Below, piece by piece: positions 14,936-25,004 of a stretch of DNA of 64,000 nucleotides (position 1 is its first letter; the number at the start of each line of letters is the position of its first letter). The stretch is from Escherichia coli. Its GTDB lineage: Bacteria > Pseudomonadota > Gammaproteobacteria > Enterobacterales > Enterobacteriaceae. The position numbers and the translations under genes are program-made. Below the pieces are notes generated by a model. The model ran no database searches and was not told the DNA's origin. It saw nothing but the letters and a program-made list of their open reading frames with translations. The stretch lies in NCBI RefSeq assembly GCF_024298765.1, contig NZ_CP101210.1; one strand, written 5' to 3'.

Positions 14936-16216
14936 ATGAGTAAGTCTGAAAATCTTTACAGCGCAGCGCGCGAGCTGATCCCTGGCGGTGTGAACTCCCC
15001 TGTTCGCGCCTTTACTGGCGTGGGCGGCACTCCACTGTTTATCGAAAAAGCGGACGGCGCTTATCTGTACGATGTTGATGGCAAAGCCTATATCGATTAT
15101 GTCGGTTCCTGGGGGCCGATGGTGCTGGGCCATAACCATCCGGCGATCCGCAATGCCGTGATTGAAGCCGCCGAGCGTGGTTTAAGCTTTGGTGCACCAA
15201 CCGAAATGGAAGTGAAAATGGCGCAACTGGTGACCGAACTGGTCCCGACCATGGATATGGTGCGCATGGTGAACTCCGGCACTGAAGCGACGATGAGCGC
15301 CATCCGCCTGGCCCGTGGTTTTACCGGTCGCGACAAAATTATTAAATTTGAAGGTTGTTACCACGGTCACGCTGACTGCCTGCTGGTGAAAGCCGGTTCT
15401 GGCGCACTCACGTTAGGCCAGCCAAATTCGCCGGGCGTTCCGGCAGATTTCGCCAAACATACCTTAACCTGTACTTATAACGATCTGGCCTCTGTACGCG
15501 TCGCGTTTGAGCAATACCCGCAAGAGATTGCCTGTATTATCGTCGAGCCGGTGGCAGGCAATATGAACTGCGTTCCACCGCTGCCAGAGTTCCTGCCAGG
15601 TCTGCGCGCGCTGTGCGACGAATTTGGCGCGTTGCTGATCATCGATGAAGTGATGACCGGTTTCCGCGTAGCGCTAGCTGGCGCACAGGATTATTACGGT
15701 GTGGAACCGGATCTCACCTGCCTCGGCAAAATCATCGGCGGTGGAATGCCGGTAGGCGCATTCGGTGGTCGTCGTGATGTAATGGATGCGCTGGCCCCGA
15801 CCGGTCCGGTCTATCAGGCGGGTACGCTTTCCGGTAACCCGATTGCGATGGCTGCTGGTTTCGCCTGTCTGAATGAAGTCGCACAGCCGGGCGTTCACGA
15901 GACGCTGGATGAGCTGACAACACGTCTGGCAGAAGGTCTGCGGGAAGCGGCAGAAGAAGCCGGAATTCCGCTGGTGGTAAACCACGTTGGCGGCATGTTC
16001 GGTATTTTCTTTACCGACGCCGAGTCCGTGACGTGCTATCAGGATGTGATGGCCTGTGACGTGGAACGTTTTAAGCGTTTCTTCCATATGATGCTGGACG
16101 AAGGTGTTTATCTGGCACCGTCAGCGTTTGAAGCGGGCTTTATGTCTGTGGCGCACAGCATGGAAGATATCAATAACACCATCGATGCTGCACGTCGGGT
16201 GTTTGCGAAGTTGTGA
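14936..16216 (+). CDS. hemL: Glutamate-1-semialdehyde 2,1-aminomutase
   Basis: 426-aa [29 protein letters not shown]...; class-III aminotransferase. Confidence 0.96.
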
Positions 16217-16221
16217 TGATT

Positions 16222-16250
16222 TTGCCTCGCCCACCGGGCGAGGCATTCTA
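16222..16250. terminator. Bidirectional terminator between hemL and fhuB
   Basis: Dyad gcctcgccc-acc-gggcgaggc directly after the hemL stop and before the convergent fhuB stop. Confidence 0.6.
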
Positions 16251-18233
16251 TTAACGGCTCTGCTTTCTCAACAAATAGATAAAATATGGCGCGCCGATAA
16301 AGGTTGACAGCAGCCCCGCCGGGATCTGGAATGGAAACAATACCATCCGCCCACACCAGTCAGCGAACACCAGCAGTAAACCACCCACCAGCGCCGAAAT
16401 TACGATGTGTGGCATCGTCCGTCGAAAACCCATCATCCGCGCAATATGCGGTGCCATTAAACCAACAAAACTCAACGGTCCAATAGTCATCGTCGCGGTC
16501 GCCGTCAGGCAAGCCGCTAATAGCAGCAGCGCAATTCGCGTCGGCGTCAGCGCCATTCCCACGGCTCGTGCGGTATCACCTCCCAGCGGTAAAATGGTCA
16601 GCCAGCGGCGGCACAGCGGGGTAATCGCCAGCAAAATTACCATCACAATTCCCGTGCGCCAGACCTGCGCATCGGTCGCGTTGTAGGTCGAACCGGAAAT
16701 CCAGGTCAGAACTTGCGCCATTCGCGGGTCACCACTTGCCTGCAACATCATCAAAAGCATGGTGAACGCGGTACTTAACGCCATCCCCGCCAGTAACATG
16801 CGGTGTGGAGAAAATCCACCGCGTCCGGCGGCGATCATAATGATCAACAGCGTCACCGCCGCCCCGAGACTACCCGCGGGTAACAGCCAGCCAAAGGCAT
16901 TACCCGGCACCAGAAACAGCATTAACACCACGCCAAACGCCGCGCCGGAGCTAATCCCCAGCACTTCCGGGCTTGCCATCGGGTTGCCGGTCAGTCGCTG
17001 AATAATACAGCCCGCCACCGCCAGCATGACGCCCGCAAACAGCGCCGCCATAATTCGCGGCCAGCGCCAGGGCATCAAATCCTCGAGCAACGCCCCGCTA
17101 GCCCACGTCCAGCCGTGCGCATCACGACCAAACGACAGCGCTACCACCACAGCCATCAACAGCAGCACGCCGCCCGCGAGGGCAAACGCCAGCACATGTT
17201 GGCGTTCAGCCGCGACACGATCGTTGACCTTCATATCCGGCGCGCTAATGCTGCGTAAACGCGGCAGCAGCCACAGTAGCAGCGGCGCACCGATCAACGC
17301 AGTGACCGAACCGGTGGAAACTTCCATCCACACGCGAGTCAGCCAGAGGATGATTTGATCAGAAAGCCACAGAATTAACGCACCAATCAGCGACGCCAGC
17401 ATTAACCGTGGCAGCAGACGCCGCGCCCCCAGCATTTTTGCCAGCAGCGGCGCGAACAACCCGATAAAGCCGATAATCCCCACTGCATTCACCAGCAGCG
17501 CACTGATGACTATCGCCAGCGACAGCGCCGCCAGACGCGCCAGCGACAAGGCCAGACCGAGATTGCGCGCCACGCCATCATCAAGCCCCATCAGGGTTAA
17601 CGGGCGAAGTAGCAATAACGTCAGCATCACGCCGCCCAGCAGCTGCGGCCATAAACGCTCAACGCCGCCCCAGTCGGTTTGCGTCAGCGTTCCGGTGCTC
17701 CACAGGAACATGCTTTGCAACTGGTCATGATGGAAGATAACCAGTAACTGATTGATTGCCCCACAATAAAGGCTCACTACCAGCCCCGCGAGGATCAGCG
17801 TTACCGGCGAAAGCCGTTTCCCCCACGCGACGCCAAAGACAATTAAGCCAACAACGCAAGCCCCTGCCAGCGCAGCAAACTGGCTCGCCATAGCACCTGG
17901 GATCGCCCAGAGCGTGGTGACGGTAATCCCCAGTTGCGCGCCTGTTGCAACACCCAACGTCGTCGGTTCCGCCAGCGGGTTACGCAGCACTTGCTGAAAC
18001 AGCACGCCCACCAGCCCCAGGCCCGCGCCTACCAGTAGAGAAATCGCCAGACGCGGCAACAAGCTGTAGTGAAAAATCATCTGCTCGATGACGTCAATAT
18101 CCGGCGACCAGGCGGCCTGCGCCCACTGGCTACGCGGCAGCGCCTGCGAGAAGTTCATCCAGGTCAGTGCCGTAGCGACAATCACTAACAGCGCCAGCAA
18201 TAACGCAGGAAAAAGCGCAATTCGTTTACTCAC
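16251..18233 (-). CDS. fhuB: Ferric hydroxamate ABC transporter permease
   Basis: 660-aa duplicated FecCD-type permease; GTG start; GTGA overlap with the fhuD stop. Confidence 0.94.
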   Translation of the reverse strand: MSKRIALFPALLLALLVIVATALTWMNFSQALPRSQWAQAAWSPDIDVIEQMIFHYSLLPRLAISLLVGAGLGLVGVLFQQVLRNPLAEPTTLGVATGAQLGITVTTLWAIPGAMASQFAALAGACVVGLIVFGVAWGKRLSPVTLILAGLVVSLYCGAINQLLVIFHHDQLQSMFLWSTGTLTQTDWGGVERLWPQLLGGVMLTLLLLRPLTLMGLDDGVARNLGLALSLARLAALSLAIVISALLVNAVGIIGFIGLFAPLLAKMLGARRLLPRLMLASLIGALILWLSDQIILWLTRVWMEVSTGSVTALIGAPLLLWLLPRLRSISAPDMKVNDRVAAERQHVLAFALAGGVLLLMAVVVALSFGRDAHGWTWASGALLEDLMPWRWPRIMAALFAGVMLAVAGCIIQRLTGNPMASPEVLGISSGAAFGVVLMLFLVPGNAFGWLLPAGSLGAAVTLLIIMIAAGRGGFSPHRMLLAGMALSTAFTMLLMMLQASGDPRMAQVLTWISGSTYNATDAQVWRTGIVMVILLAITPLCRRWLTILPLGGDTARAVGMALTPTRIALLLLAACLTATATMTIGPLSFVGLMAPHIARMMGFRRTMPHIVISALVGGLLLVFADWCGRMVLFPFQIPAGLLSTFIGAPYFIYLLRKQSR

Positions 18234-19120
18234 GCTTTACCTCCGATGGCGTTATCCAGAATACGCACAAAGTGCATTGCAGAAAGCGTCGCACCATAGA
18301 ACCAGACCGCCGGAACGCGCTGAAAGCGTCCGGCGCGGACAAACGGCATGGCCTGCCACAGCGGGGTTGCCATTAGCGCATCCATGTCTTTGCTGTTGTC
18401 GTGATCAAAACAGAGCACATCAACGTCTTTATACGCTGCCAGACGATCGATACTGACGGCGGTACTGCCCCAGAAGTTGGTTTCCCCTTGCCAGGCATTT
18501 GGGATGCCGTACTCATCGAGAATTTCCTGGAACAAGCTGTTTGGACCGAAGACCAACATATGGCGCGGATCGATAAGCGTCGTCAGCAATAACGGGCGCG
18601 CACCACGCTTCACAAAGCGGGGTTTCATGCTGCGGATAAAGTCTTCATAGTGCGCTAAATGCGTTTCTGCTGCGCTTTGCAGGTTAAGTAAATCTGCCAT
18701 TTCCGTCAGTGATTTACGCGCCATCGCCAGTGGCTGTTTGCCGTCGCTGAAGTTAAATCCGCGCCCCGGCGCAATACGTGCCAGCATTTCTGGTGAAGGG
18801 CCATATCCTGCCGACCAGATCATAAACGACGGTTTCATTTCGGTCAGCAGTTCAAGGTTGGGTTCTGTACGCAAACCAACGTCAATCACTGAGTCCGGCA
18901 ATGGCGGTTCGCTGACCCACAGGCGATAGTTGATGGTGTCCGCCACGCCGTAAGGCACGATGCCGAGCGCCAGCAGTAATTCCACCGGCAACCACTCCAG
19001 CGCCACAATACGATTGGGATCAATAATCGCCGCGTGGGCGGTATTCATCTGCCATAACAACGGAGAAAGCGCCATCGCCGTTAACAGTCGGCGGCGCGAA
19101 ATAAGAGGTAAGCCGCTCAT
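18230..19120 (-). CDS. fhuD: Ferric hydroxamate periplasmic binding protein
   Basis: 296 aa from the ATG at 19120 (MSGLPLISRRRLLTAMALSPLLW, Tat-like signal); ATGA overlap with the fhuC stop. Confidence 0.93.
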   Translation of the reverse strand: MSGLPLISRRRLLTAMALSPLLWQMNTAHAAIIDPNRIVALEWLPVELLLALGIVPYGVADTINYRLWVSEPPLPDSVIDVGLRTEPNLELLTEMKPSFMIWSAGYGPSPEMLARIAPGRGFNFSDGKQPLAMARKSLTEMADLLNLQSAAETHLAHYEDFIRSMKPRFVKRGARPLLLTTLIDPRHMLVFGPNSLFQEILDEYGIPNAWQGETNFWGSTAVSIDRLAAYKDVDVLCFDHDNSKDMDALMATPLWQAMPFVRAGRFQRVPAVWFYGATLSAMHFVRILDNAIGGKA

Positions 19121-19917
19121 CAATAAACAAAACTCACAGGTGCAGCACCCGCCGGATGCGGCAGAATACCCATCGGGATGCCATAAATCATTTCGAGGGT
19201 TTCGCCGCGCATAATTTCCGCAGGCGTTCCCTGAGCAATCATTTCACCACCGCGCAGGGCGACCAGATAATCACAGTAGCGCGCAGCCATATTAATATCG
19301 TGCAGCACGGCAATGACCGTCAGACCACGTTCCTGACTTAAACGATGCACCAGCGCCAGCACATCAACCTGGTGGGCGATATCCAGCGCCGAGGTCGGTT
19401 CGTCGAGCAACAGACAACGGCTATCCTGCGCCACCAGCATAGCGATCCACGCCCGCTGACGTTCGCCGCCAGAGAGACTATCGACCAGCCGATGCGCCAG
19501 CGGTTTTAAGCCAACCAGCGAAATCGCCTCTTCGACCTTTTCGCGATCTGCCGCACCAAAGCGCCCCAGTGCGCCATGCCACGGGTAACGACCAATCGCC
19601 ACCAGTTCACGCACGGTCATCCCTTCTGCCGGAGGAAGCTGCTGCGGCAAATAAGCCACTTTGCGGGCGAACGCTTTGCTGCTCCAGCTTTCCAGCGGCT
19701 GGGCATCAAGAAGAATTTCGCCTTCCGACGGTGGCTGATGACGGCCAAGCATTTTGAGCAGAGTGGATTTACCAGAACCGTTGTGACCAATCAAACCAGT
19801 CACTTTCCCGGCAGGAAAGGTTAACGACAGCGGATGCAAAAGCGTGCGCCCTGGCACACGAAAGGAGATATTACGCAGTGCAAAAGTGGTATCGGAATGA
19901 TTCGTGTATTCCTGCAT
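19120..19917 (-). CDS. fhuC: Ferric hydroxamate ABC transporter ATP-binding protein
   Basis: The ATG at 19917 gives 265 aa beginning MQEYTNHSDTTFALRNISF, with Walker A GHNGSGKST and the LSGGERQR signature. The track ORF is extended. Confidence 0.93.
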   Translation of the reverse strand: MQEYTNHSDTTFALRNISFRVPGRTLLHPLSLTFPAGKVTGLIGHNGSGKSTLLKMLGRHQPPSEGEILLDAQPLESWSSKAFARKVAYLPQQLPPAEGMTVRELVAIGRYPWHGALGRFGAADREKVEEAISLVGLKPLAHRLVDSLSGGERQRAWIAMLVAQDSRCLLLDEPTSALDIAHQVDVLALVHRLSQERGLTVIAVLHDINMAARYCDYLVALRGGEMIAQGTPAEIMRGETLEMIYGIPMGILPHPAGAAPVSFVY

Positions 19918-19967
19918 AACAGCCAACTTGTGAAGCGGGCACGGAAATCCGTGCCCCAAAGAAAAAA

Positions 19968-22157
19968 TTAGAAACGGAAGGTTGCGGTTGCAACGACCTG
20001 ACGTTCTGCGCCCCAGAAGCAGCCATAGGTCTGGAAGCAACTGGCAACATACTCACGATCGAGCAAATTGTTGACGTTCACAGCAAGGCTGGATCCCGCC
20101 ATACCAAAGCGTGCCAGATCATATTTTACAACAGCATCCATTACAGCTGCGCTACCCACTTTAAAAGTGTTCGCCGGATCACCATAGCTGGAACCAATAA
20201 AACGACCACCTGTTCCCAATGTTAAACCAGAAAGCGGCCCTTCATTGAAGGTATAATCCCCCCAGAGAGATGCCATATGCTCCGGTACTTGTTCTGGAGT
20301 TTTACCTTTGAGATTGGTGTCTTTGGTGTATTCCGCATCTGTGTAGGTATAAGAAGCCGTCAAGTTAATATTGGCATTTAACGCCGCTTTTGCTTCAAGT
20401 TCCACACCACGAGCGCGAATCTCACCTGCTGGGACTTGCGCTAACGGGTTTGTTGGGTCTGCTGTCAGGTTATTTGTTTTCGTCAATTGATAGACTGCGC
20501 CCGTAACAACGACCGGCATATCATTCGGAACATATTTTACGCCAGCTTCATACTGTTCACCTTTCGATGGCTTATAGGAAACGCGCGGGTTGCTCCACAG
20601 ATCGAAAGCACTCGGTTCAAAGGACTGGCTATAACTAAAGTAAGGTGAAATACCATTATCGAATAAGTAGTTTACACCACCGCGCCAGGTGAACTGATGA
20701 TCATTACGCTCAATATAACCTTCAGTCGGCGTATAAGAGTTTTCACGAACAGTGGTCGCTTGCTTAGACCAATCGTAGCGTCCCCCCAGAGTGAATACCC
20801 ATTTATTCCATTCCGCCTGATCCTGAACATAAATACCTGTTTGTTTGCTTTCATTCATTTGGTATGGCTCTGCGTTACCAAATGCAAAGTATTCAGGATG
20901 ATATTTGTTATAAAGATCGATGGATGGTGCAGATCCAAAGCTGGCATTGATATCATTGCGCATACGCATGAAGTCTACCCCTGTCAGCAAAGTATGCTCG
21001 ACTTCACCTGTAGCAAATTTACTTTCAAGTTGGGTATCAACGCTAAAGTTTTGCAGACGCTCATTATCCACCACTGTCCCGCGGTTTAGGGTATGACCAT
21101 CGCTGGCAATCCCTGTGCCATAAACACTTTTCTGTGAGGTTTTCATTTCACTGAAACGCAGATTCTGACGCACGGTGAAGGTGTCATTAAAACCATGTTC
21201 AAAACTATATCCCACCATTTTCTGGTTACGGGAGTATGTATTATTCGATGCACCTTCATTGAAGTCAGTCGGTAGACGCTTACCATTAGGCAATGGCTCA
21301 ACGGTCCCCTCTTTCGGCAACCAACCGTAATAACCCGTTTCTGGTTCGTTCTGAAAATAGGACAGGAAAGTAAAATTGGTTTTGTCGTCTGGACGCCATG
21401 AGAATGATGGAGCAATGGTATAACGCTGAGATTCAGAGTTTTTCTGCTGTTCGTTTGTTGAGCGTGCGAGGCCAGTCAAACGGTAGGAGAACTCACCGTT
21501 ATCATCCAGCGCATCACTGAAATCGAATCCGGTCTGAAACAGATTATCCGTCCCCATTTTAAACTGAATTTCTTTCAGGGGTTCAGTTGTCGGACGCTTA
21601 CTCACCATAGAAATAATCCCACCAGGATTACTTTTCCCATAGAGAACAGACGTCGGCCCGCGCATCAGTTCAACCCTCTCGAGCATGTAAGGATCAATCA
21701 CAGCATCGTTATAAAAGTTGCCCTGAAGTTTTAGTCCATCAAGGTAGTTATTTTGATTCAGACCAACAGATGAGAAACCACGAATGATAACAAAATCATA
21801 TGTATTAGAAGCACCACGACTGCTAACCGTAACGCCAGGTGTATAACCTAATGCTTCTTTTACAGACTGAAATTGATGCATCTGTATCTCTTCATTTGTC
21901 ACAACCGAAATAGACTGCGGCGTTTTTTCAATTGGTGTATCCGTTTTAGTCGCAGTAGCAGAGTGCTTCGCCGCAATAGTTGCAGCAGGCCCCCATGCGC
22001 TTTCTTGCGGCGCAGGTGCAGCGGTAACGGTGATAGTGTCTTCTTTCGGTTCAACCGCTGCCTGTGCATAAACAGACATGCCGCTAACCGCTGTGGCTAC
22101 TACAACTGCGATTTTACGCAGTGAGTGTTTTGGCTGAGCAGTTTTGGAACGCGCCAT
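19968..22157 (-). CDS. fhuA: TonB-dependent ferrichrome outer-membrane receptor (divergent allele)
   Basis: 729-aa ORF. The signal peptide and N-terminus (MARSKTAQPKHSLRKIAVVVATAVSGMSVYAQAAVEPKEDTITVTAAPAPQESAWGPAATIAA) and the C-terminal TonB-box-receptor end (GAERQVVATATFRF) match FhuA. Central loop segments differ from the K-12 sequence as I recall it. Confidence 0.9.
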   Translation of the reverse strand: MARSKTAQPKHSLRKIAVVVATAVSGMSVYAQAAVEPKEDTITVTAAPAPQESAWGPAATIAAKHSATATKTDTPIEKTPQSISVVTNEEIQMHQFQSVKEALGYTPGVTVSSRGASNTYDFVIIRGFSSVGLNQNNYLDGLKLQGNFYNDAVIDPYMLERVELMRGPTSVLYGKSNPGGIISMVSKRPTTEPLKEIQFKMGTDNLFQTGFDFSDALDDNGEFSYRLTGLARSTNEQQKNSESQRYTIAPSFSWRPDDKTNFTFLSYFQNEPETGYYGWLPKEGTVEPLPNGKRLPTDFNEGASNNTYSRNQKMVGYSFEHGFNDTFTVRQNLRFSEMKTSQKSVYGTGIASDGHTLNRGTVVDNERLQNFSVDTQLESKFATGEVEHTLLTGVDFMRMRNDINASFGSAPSIDLYNKYHPEYFAFGNAEPYQMNESKQTGIYVQDQAEWNKWVFTLGGRYDWSKQATTVRENSYTPTEGYIERNDHQFTWRGGVNYLFDNGISPYFSYSQSFEPSAFDLWSNPRVSYKPSKGEQYEAGVKYVPNDMPVVVTGAVYQLTKTNNLTADPTNPLAQVPAGEIRARGVELEAKAALNANINLTASYTYTDAEYTKDTNLKGKTPEQVPEHMASLWGDYTFNEGPLSGLTLGTGGRFIGSSYGDPANTFKVGSAAVMDAVVKYDLARFGMAGSSLAVNVNNLLDREYVASCFQTYGCFWGAERQVVATATFRF

Positions 22158-24911: not shown

Positions 24912-25004
24912 GCTTTTTCTCCGCAATATTCAGGCGCAAAAGCCCGATTTTCTGTTCTTCTGTTGCAAGACAGAAGAAGATATCTCTCAAATTTACTTTG
25001 ATCT

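Follow-up and report, generated by a model that had tools for sequence, protein, structure and literature searches.

A mosaic fhuA allele in Escherichia coli with native ends and a foreign, AT-richer core resembling the published E3 cluster

For phages, colicin M, microcin J25 and conjugates of siderophores with antibiotics (such as albomycin), FhuA is a standard model receptor, and nearly all mechanistic work on it concerns the Escherichia coli K-12 type. Wang, Chen, Hu, Zhu, White and Koster (2018; Infect Immun 86:e00573-18; bioRxiv 10.1101/320069) divided E. coli FhuA into the clusters E1-E4, with K-12 in E1, and Salmonella FhuA into S1 and S2, and proposed that fhuA is exchanged between species and allows escape from phages. 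FhuA also stands among 21 'mosaic' outer-membrane protein families (PMC12175518), and an fhuA allele swap has been described in sequence type 410 (ST410), where WP_000124383.1 is the allele of the non-clone strains (Feng et al. 2019, Commun Biol, PMC6715731). Here we analyse the fhuA gene in a 64,000-nucleotide stretch of E. coli DNA (NCBI RefSeq assembly GCF_024298765.1, contig NZ_CP101210.1), hereafter the window. This gene is a mosaic in which E. coli-type ends enclose a foreign, AT-richer core (codons 64-709). The original prediction, made from the letters alone, of a mosaic allele with divergent surface loops is partly supported by our results and is a correct rediscovery, as the allele class has been in the literature since 2018 and is common.

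The mosaic structure is seen in the comparison with the K-12 locus (L001; K-12 type, MG1655 coordinates), where identity in sliding segments of 100 nucleotides (nt) is 92-100% in the flanks and 52-86% inside fhuA, with abrupt steps. GC content per 300 nt is 0.41-0.47 within fhuA and 0.53-0.62 in mrcB and fhuCDB; the whole gene has a GC of 0.458 and a GC at third codon positions (GC3) of 0.41, compared with 0.512 and 0.535 in K-12 fhuA and a GC3 of 0.56-0.70 in the adjoining genes. Neither near-identity to K-12 across the loops nor uniform GC was seen, and the initial observation stands. At the 5' end, gene nt 1-189 equal K-12 exactly and mismatches begin at gene nt 190 (window 21968), while at the 3' end the last difference common to all carriers lies at window 20031 and the final ~60 nt are nearly those of K-12, which agrees with the claim that both ends match classical FhuA. 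The AT-rich centre had been placed at about 20200-21900; the base composition was read correctly (GC3 0.41 versus 0.54), but the extent was too narrow, as the segment actually covers 20031-21968.

The core shows ~69% nucleotide and 74% amino acid identity to K-12, with a proportion of synonymous differences (pS) of 0.78 (433 synonymous sites) and a proportion of nonsynonymous differences (pN) of 0.168. The contrast between this pS and the value of 0.00 in the first 63 codons excludes chance as the cause of the divergence. Even in the 50-residue stretch around loop 3 (L3; mature residues 221-270), where the protein is 100% identical to K-12, pS is 0.67. Because silent sites are saturated even in the plug and in unchanged segments, the core represents a different gene lineage on native ends. 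The mosaic first proposed is therefore real in its E. coli ends and foreign core, but the divergence is not limited to the loops, since plug and strands are only ~76% identical. Codons 1-63 equal K-12 and yet differ from Salmonella with a pS of 0.36, and hence track the species rather than the allele type. The features of the gene, in the direction of transcription, are as follows.

19968-22157, minus strand: fhuA coding sequence, 729 codons plus stop, ferrichrome outer-membrane transporter of apparent E3 type
21969-22157, minus strand: E. coli-type 5' segment, codons 1-63, 100% nucleotide identity to K-12, pS = 0
22059-22157, minus strand: signal peptide, inside the 5' segment
22026-22040, minus strand: TonB box DTITV, inside the 5' segment with the N-terminal periplasmic segment
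20031-21968, minus strand: divergent core (codons 64-709) with the greater part of the plug and almost the entire barrel, GC 0.44, GC3 0.405
21240-21335, minus strand: L3 (residues 275-306), 31 of 32 residues as in K-12
21093-21107, minus strand: L4 tip ASDGH, 17 residues fewer than K-12, Cys318-Cys329 pair lost, 18% identity
20868-20915, minus strand: L5 tip, 8 residues shorter than K-12, 26% identity
20721-20747, minus strand: L6 tip, YTPTE region, 5-residue insertion, 22% identity to K-12
20568-20615, minus strand: L7 tip FDLWSNPRVSY, rewritten, 2 residues more than K-12, 19% identity
20439-20459, minus strand: L8 tip DPTNPLA (K-12 DPEGSFF), same length, F557L and F558A
20019-20039, minus strand: C-terminal cysteine pair CFQTYGC (K-12 mature C692/C698), kept and invariant in 82 homologues
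19968-20030, minus strand: E. coli-type 3' segment comprising the final 20 codons and the stop, differing from K-12 only at window 20028, a site polymorphic among carriers

The product is a full-length FhuA. The open reading frame (ORF; 729 amino acids (aa), ATG start) has the length first reported, and the 747 aa given there for K-12 is also correct. In a phmmer search, residues 34-729 matched the FhuA chains 8A60, 8A8C, 1BY3 and 2FCP (E = 0, 1162 bits), and the protein is homologous over its full length to TonB-dependent ferrichrome transporters, with their N-terminal plug and 22-strand barrel; the plug and barrel families PF07715 and PF00593 are on record for the 90% cluster that holds it. 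A signal peptide, the DTITV TonB box (residues 40-44) and a C-terminus ending in TFRF, with its terminal aromatic residue, are all present. The gene order hrpB-mrcB-fhuA-fhuC-fhuD-fhuB-hemL is that of K-12, with fhuA first in an intact fhuACDB operon. A 100%-identical gene in strain 104 is annotated by RefSeq as 'ferrichrome porin FhuA' (WP_000124376.1), and the exact protein is already catalogued in UniRef (A0A0J2BBS1_ECOLX; on at least 1000 contigs).

Over a global alignment, window FhuA is 74% identical to the 747-aa K-12 protein, and the differences are distributed unevenly. Regions were partitioned with barrel strand boundaries (predicted local distance difference test, pLDDT, 60-89) from an otherwise poor AlphaFold2 model, which was built from a 41-sequence alignment and has a mean pLDDT of 53.6, with the plug below 50. 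The loop tips given by these boundaries (mature 318-339, 502-515 and 552-558) agree with the published ranges of L7 and L8, the latter being 552-558 in PMC10373560. Identity to K-12 is 100% in the N-terminus (codons 1-63), 77% in the plug, 76% in the barrel strands (periplasmic halves 83%, outer halves 69%), 75% in the periplasmic turns, 97% in L3, 62% in L9 and 18-29% in the loop tips of L4-L8. In L4, the window sequence GIASDGHTLNRGTVVDNERLQ aligns to GVCSDPANAYSKQCAALAPADKGHYLARKYVVDDEKLQ of K-12 with a 17-residue deletion (mature 321-337); Cys318 has become Ala and Cys329 lies inside the deletion, so that both L4 cysteines of K-12 are gone. A shortened, cysteine-free L4 had been read from the sequence, as had differences in other external loops, which are now seen as the loss of 8 residues in L5, the gain of 5 in L6 and 2 in L7, and the rewriting of L8.

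Most residues that contact ferrichrome seem to have been preserved in this altered protein, eight of the ten checked being kept (R81, G99, Y116, Y244, W246, Y313, F391 and F693) and two replaced (Y315T and Q100L). Among these, W246, Y313, F391, F693 and Q100 are residues that we take, from crystal-structure papers, to be part of the contact list. The hydrogen-bonding residues are R81, G99, Y116, Y244 and Y315 (Braun 2024, PMC11658791), of which four are kept and Y315 is replaced by Thr. The L3 contacts Y244 and W246 are invariant in the 82 homologues, and both replacements are typical of the clade (Thr315 in 26 of 82, Leu100 in 24 of 82). Moreover, the core differs from Salmonella S2 with a pN of only 0.030 at a pS of 0.81, and the six E. 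coli copies compared below have 74 synonymous-only codons versus 14 amino-acid-variable ones, indicating purifying selection on the core. From the residue pattern we infer that window FhuA would keep hydroxamate siderophore uptake.

The allele appears to belong to the published cluster E3, an assignment made by the described features and not by a match of strain labels. E3 is described as lacking the insertions in L4 (Indel 3) and L5 (Indel 4) of E1, S1 and E2, and window FhuA is 17 and 8 residues shorter than K-12 at these sites. It has the insertions in L6 (Indel 5; 5 residues) and L7 (Indel 6; 2 residues) and has none of the insertions that mark E4 in L3 (Indel 1) and L10 (Indel 2), whose lengths of 31 and 30 are those of K-12. 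Its core also groups with S2 rather than with S1/E1, being 94.9% identical to the 729-aa Salmonella type versus 75.7% to the 747-aa type.

The replaced loops are those on which the receptor function for phages has been mapped in K-12. Loop-deletion and structural work on K-12, as summarised in PMC10373560 and PMC9586334, showed that T1 depends critically on L4 and phi80 partly so, whereas L8 is the main requirement for T5, phi80 and SO1-like phages. The initial reading of L4 as the loop of T1, T5 and phi80 thus holds for T1 and in part for phi80. Of the 27 hydrogen bonds formed by pb5, the T5 receptor-binding protein, 23 go to the extracellular loops EL4, EL5 and EL8 (PMC9586334), and L4, L5 and L8 are all replaced in window FhuA, F557 and F558 included. 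An altered sensitivity to T1, T5, phi80 and colicin M would be a reasonable expectation from these residues. More broadly, a changed phage, colicin and albomycin sensitivity combined with retained ferrichrome uptake, as first suggested, is plausible and fits the residue pattern. Codon 352, in the L4 tip (21102-21104), encodes Ser, Asn or Gly among the six E. coli copies and is the sole three-state position, perhaps a sign that the shortened L4 is still under selection; the loop tips hold 4 of the 14 variable residues. Phenotypes of S. Typhimurium LT2 (sensitive to ES18, resistant to T1, T5 and colicin M) were considered as a proxy for the E3 type and set aside, as LT2 could not be assigned to an FhuA type. 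Degroux et al. report a Typhimurium FhuA at least 96% identical to the laboratory E. coli protein, which would be S1-like.

The core is widespread in E. coli, occurring at 98.3-100% identity in 561 of 5,426 complete genomes (10.3%); in all 561 carriers it is chromosomal and single-copy, and never on a plasmid. A whole-gene search gave 562 genomes at 95% identity or more. Carriers come from humans, chickens, dogs, cattle and pigs, among other hosts. We compared six E. coli copies, namely the window, L086-L089 and L003. Their 5' and 3' junctions are identical in all six but their flanking backgrounds differ, the upstream flank being K-12-like in L087 and L089 and not so in the window, L086 and L088. 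Shared junctions within different flanks fit one original mosaic that homologous recombination later carried into various E. coli backgrounds. Core divergence among the six is 1.0-2.8%, and this internal diversity indicates that the core is not a recent arrival in E. coli. Other FhuA types were also encountered in the species: proteins of 749 and 752 aa are ~90% identical to K-12, some of them on at least 1000 contigs, and in 92 genomes fhuA matches only the first ~470-650 nt of the core, at 71-73%. These are probably the published E2 and E4 clusters.

Outside E. coli, homologues were collected by scanning 100,044 species, each represented by one genome, and by a protein search over 5.8 billion proteins. 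The nearest proteins in the species scan are from Citrobacter sp. (93%), Superficieibacter (92%), Lelliottia nimipressuralis (91%) and Kluyvera intermedia (89%), and the 90% cluster of the window protein also contains a 729-aa Salmonella enterica FhuA with 94% identity to it. The loop set is common, nearly residue for residue, to Salmonella, Citrobacter, Superficieibacter, Lelliottia and Kluyvera, and an L4 without the cysteine pair occurs in 43 of the 82 homologues, which makes it the slightly commoner state in this sample. Some of the same species have other genomes with an FhuA type of 64-66% identity. For instance, FhuA is 91% identical to the window protein in one genome of Lelliottia nimipressuralis (L007) and 64% in another (L072), and 84% versus 66% in two of Trabulsiella odontotermitis (L010 and L064). 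E. coli and Salmonella are thus not alone in having deep within-species polymorphism of fhuA.

The silent sites give a different picture from the proteins. Between E. coli and Salmonella, the flanking genes mrcB, fhuC, fhuD and fhuB have a pS of 0.56-0.61 and a difference at fourfold degenerate sites of 0.45-0.49. For the core, the values are as follows.

K-12 type versus Salmonella 747-aa S1 (L090): protein identity 92.6%, pS 0.62, fourfold difference 0.50
Window allele versus Salmonella S2 (L083): protein identity 94.9%, pS 0.81, fourfold difference 0.68
Window allele versus K-12: protein identity 74.3%, pS 0.78, fourfold difference 0.67
Window allele versus S1: protein identity 75.7%, pS 0.81, fourfold difference 0.70

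The K-12 type and S1 are thus at background divergence, as for ordinary orthologues, whereas the window allele and S2 are saturated. At fourfold sites, the window core differs by 0.56 or more from all homologues outside E. coli. The core is shifted towards A and T at these sites (A 0.22, T 0.38, versus A 0.09-0.14 and T 0.27-0.32 in K-12, S1 and S2), and at 0.405 it has the lowest GC3 among the 82 homologues. Saturated silent sites, with that minimum fourfold difference, exclude a recent transfer from Salmonella or any sampled genus, and the unameliorated composition is hard to reconcile with residence since before the Salmonella split. The AT-shifted and saturated sites suggest an unsampled source lineage of lower GC. 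Hence, judging from composition and divergence, the core is probably an old import from such a lineage of the same FhuA clade, old enough for diversity at the species level to have built up.

Taken as a whole, the best explanation, to which we give a probability of about 0.8, is a functional E3-class fhuA whose core was imported by homologous recombination and whose new surface would escape predators tuned to the K-12 type. Codons 64-709 have been exchanged, through homologous recombination, for the main part of a gene from a deeply divergent FhuA lineage, namely the short-L4 clade of ~724-745 aa that also includes Salmonella 'S2' and some Citrobacter, Superficieibacter, Lelliottia and Kluyvera. 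Since the crossovers fell in the conserved gene ends, the signal peptide, TonB box, promoter and FhuCDB partners stayed native. The product has the same plug-and-barrel machinery and the essential L3, with a different outer surface in L4-L8, the loops used by the K-12-specific phages (T1, T5, phi80 and SO1-like) and probably by colicin M. Such an allele could still take up hydroxamate siderophores and yet evade predators adapted to the common FhuA type, which are then the putative selective agent; selection favouring rare receptor types may hold it at ~10% of E. coli, and homologous recombination would move it between E. coli lineages.

Another explanation is an ancient balanced polymorphism, in which both types predate the split of E. 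coli and Salmonella and have persisted in both; no core would have been imported, and recombination inside each species would have homogenised the flanks. Both types do occur in both species at 93-95% protein identity, the 63 codons at the 5' end track species and not type, the sharp divergence peak is confined to the gene as long-term balancing selection would give, and the internal diversity of 1-2.8% means a long residence in E. coli. We nevertheless regard this as rather improbable: the K-12 type and S1 lie at background (fourfold 0.50, flanks 0.45-0.49) while the window allele and S2 are saturated (0.68), and the window allele is equally distant from everything. Furthermore, ~100 million years in E. 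coli should have equilibrated a GC3 of 0.405 with that of the neighbours (0.56-0.70) and of the K-12 allele (0.54). A recent transfer from Salmonella enterica S2 would be in line with the published frequent exchange of fhuA after speciation, and the closest protein relatives are indeed Salmonella FhuA of equal length, 94-95% identical and with nearly the same loops. On examination of the Salmonella locus, however, this was rejected on the silent-site data and is very unlikely: nucleotide identity of the core is only ~80%, pS (0.81) and the fourfold difference (0.68) exceed the species background, and the GC3 of 0.405 compares with 0.562. Even harder to credit is divergence in place, by rapid phage-driven positive selection on an ordinary E. 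coli fhuA without recombination. Positive selection on E. coli fhuA has been reported (work cited in PMC12175518 and in Wang et al., bioRxiv 10.1101/320069), divergence is greatest in the loop tips, and residue 352 has three states among six copies. However, synonymous sites are saturated across the core even where the protein is unchanged, identity changes in abrupt steps, plug and periplasmic turns are also only ~75% identical, and the same loop sequences occur in other genera; positive selection on the loops alone was thus rejected, again on the silent sites.

Several points weigh against the imported core with a predator-escaping surface that we favour. The donor search, with one genome per species for 100,044 species and 5.8 billion proteins, found no donor, the nearest non-E. 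coli DNA being ~80% identical, and with a single genome standing for each species, a donor whose representative has a different allele would have escaped the scan. In principle, evolution in place under reduced recombination, rather than a foreign origin, could also account for the low GC3. With Thr in place of the hydrogen-bond donor Y315 and Leu in place of Q100, the affinity or the substrate preference might not be that of K-12. The AlphaFold2 model (mean pLDDT 53.6) is too poor for structural claims on the loops. Our literature search found no experimental phenotype for E3- or S2-type FhuA, papers on Salmonella Tequintavirus, receptor prediction and Cronobacter phages contained nothing on the E3-type allele, and Wang et al. 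(bioRxiv 10.1101/320069) state that phenotypes are still to be verified. A more far-reaching idea, for which we would put the odds slightly below even, is that the allele is a distinct FhuA 'receptor serotype', invisible to T1, T5, phi80, SO1-like phages, colicin M and microcin J25, with specific phages of its own, derived from an unsampled AT-richer enterobacterial lineage and held at ~10% in E. coli by rare-type advantage. If true, receptor assignments based on K-12 would mispredict host range for about one tenth of E. coli, strains of the ST410 lineage included.

Some further observations concern the neighbouring sequences and the gene records. A TTG-initiated ORF of 306 aa at 19120-20040 (minus strand) overlaps the final 73 nt of fhuA and is fhuC with an in-frame upstream extension; the RefSeq fhuC has 265 aa and starts at window 19917, 50 nt past the fhuA stop. 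The 90% cluster of the Salmonella S2 protein (P0001), which holds window FhuA, also has 265-aa FhuC proteins of Salmonella and Klebsiella, presumably a clustering artefact, such as chaining via fused fhuA-fhuC gene calls. Between hrpB and mrcB (24960-25057), the window is without ~100 base pairs (bp) of K-12, and the mismatch count there is 112 in L087, as in K-12, and 62 in L089; this is probably a repetitive extragenic palindromic (REP)-type element present in some strains only. Between fhuB and hemL (16118-16384), the window is without ~120-140 bp of K-12, with K-12-like counts in L088 and L003 and the window state in L086, L087 and L089; this segment is another variable intergenic element. 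In L003 (E. coli SCPM-O-B-8794, NZ_JAATUR010000035.1), positions 1 to ~3860, upstream of the equivalent of ~22300, are unrelated to mrcB/hrpB (116-160 mismatches per 200 columns), and the upstream neighbourhood of fhuA is therefore rearranged or interrupted there.

Compared with described systems, the window allele is like the E3 cluster of Wang et al. (2018) in all descriptors and in its native fhuACDB locus, without structural difference. Those authors concluded from protein trees that interspecies exchange is frequent and recent, whereas the silent sites indicate that E. coli E3 has not been recently shared with Salmonella or another sampled genus; beyond their work, the junctions of the E3 core are here defined at codons 64 and 709. 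What our analysis adds is therefore silent-site and composition data that argue against a recent Salmonella-E. coli exchange of the E3 type and point to an unsampled donor. Salmonella enterica S2 FhuA (P0001) resembles window FhuA in its length of 729 aa, nearly identical L4-L8, Q100L and Y315T, but is separated from it by a pS of 0.81 and a GC3 of 0.56 versus 0.405, and its first 63 codons are of the Salmonella type. With K-12 FhuA (E1; 1BY3, 2FCP, 8A8C, 8A60) the window allele shares locus, operon, signal peptide, TonB box, plug-barrel architecture and the C692-C698 disulfide; unlike window FhuA, to which it is 74% identical, the K-12 protein has the C318-C329 disulfide and different L4-L8.

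The ancestral allele of ST410 (Feng et al. 2019, PMC6715731) is a close variant of the window's class, WP_000124383.1 being annotated on the carrier L087, whose core is 98.7% identical to that of the window; the event in the clone was the reverse one, from an E3-type to a K-12-like allele. As ~10% of sequenced E. coli, ancestral ST410 too, carry this other surface, host-range prediction for phage therapy and the design of Trojan-horse antibiotics should treat the FhuA type as variable. The mosaics of ompC, ompA, ompF and lamB (PMC12175518) likewise consist of few discrete loop types that are swapped by recombination and do not follow the strain phylogeny. However, those genes exchange single hypervariable regions, whereas in the window fhuA nearly the whole gene body was exchanged.

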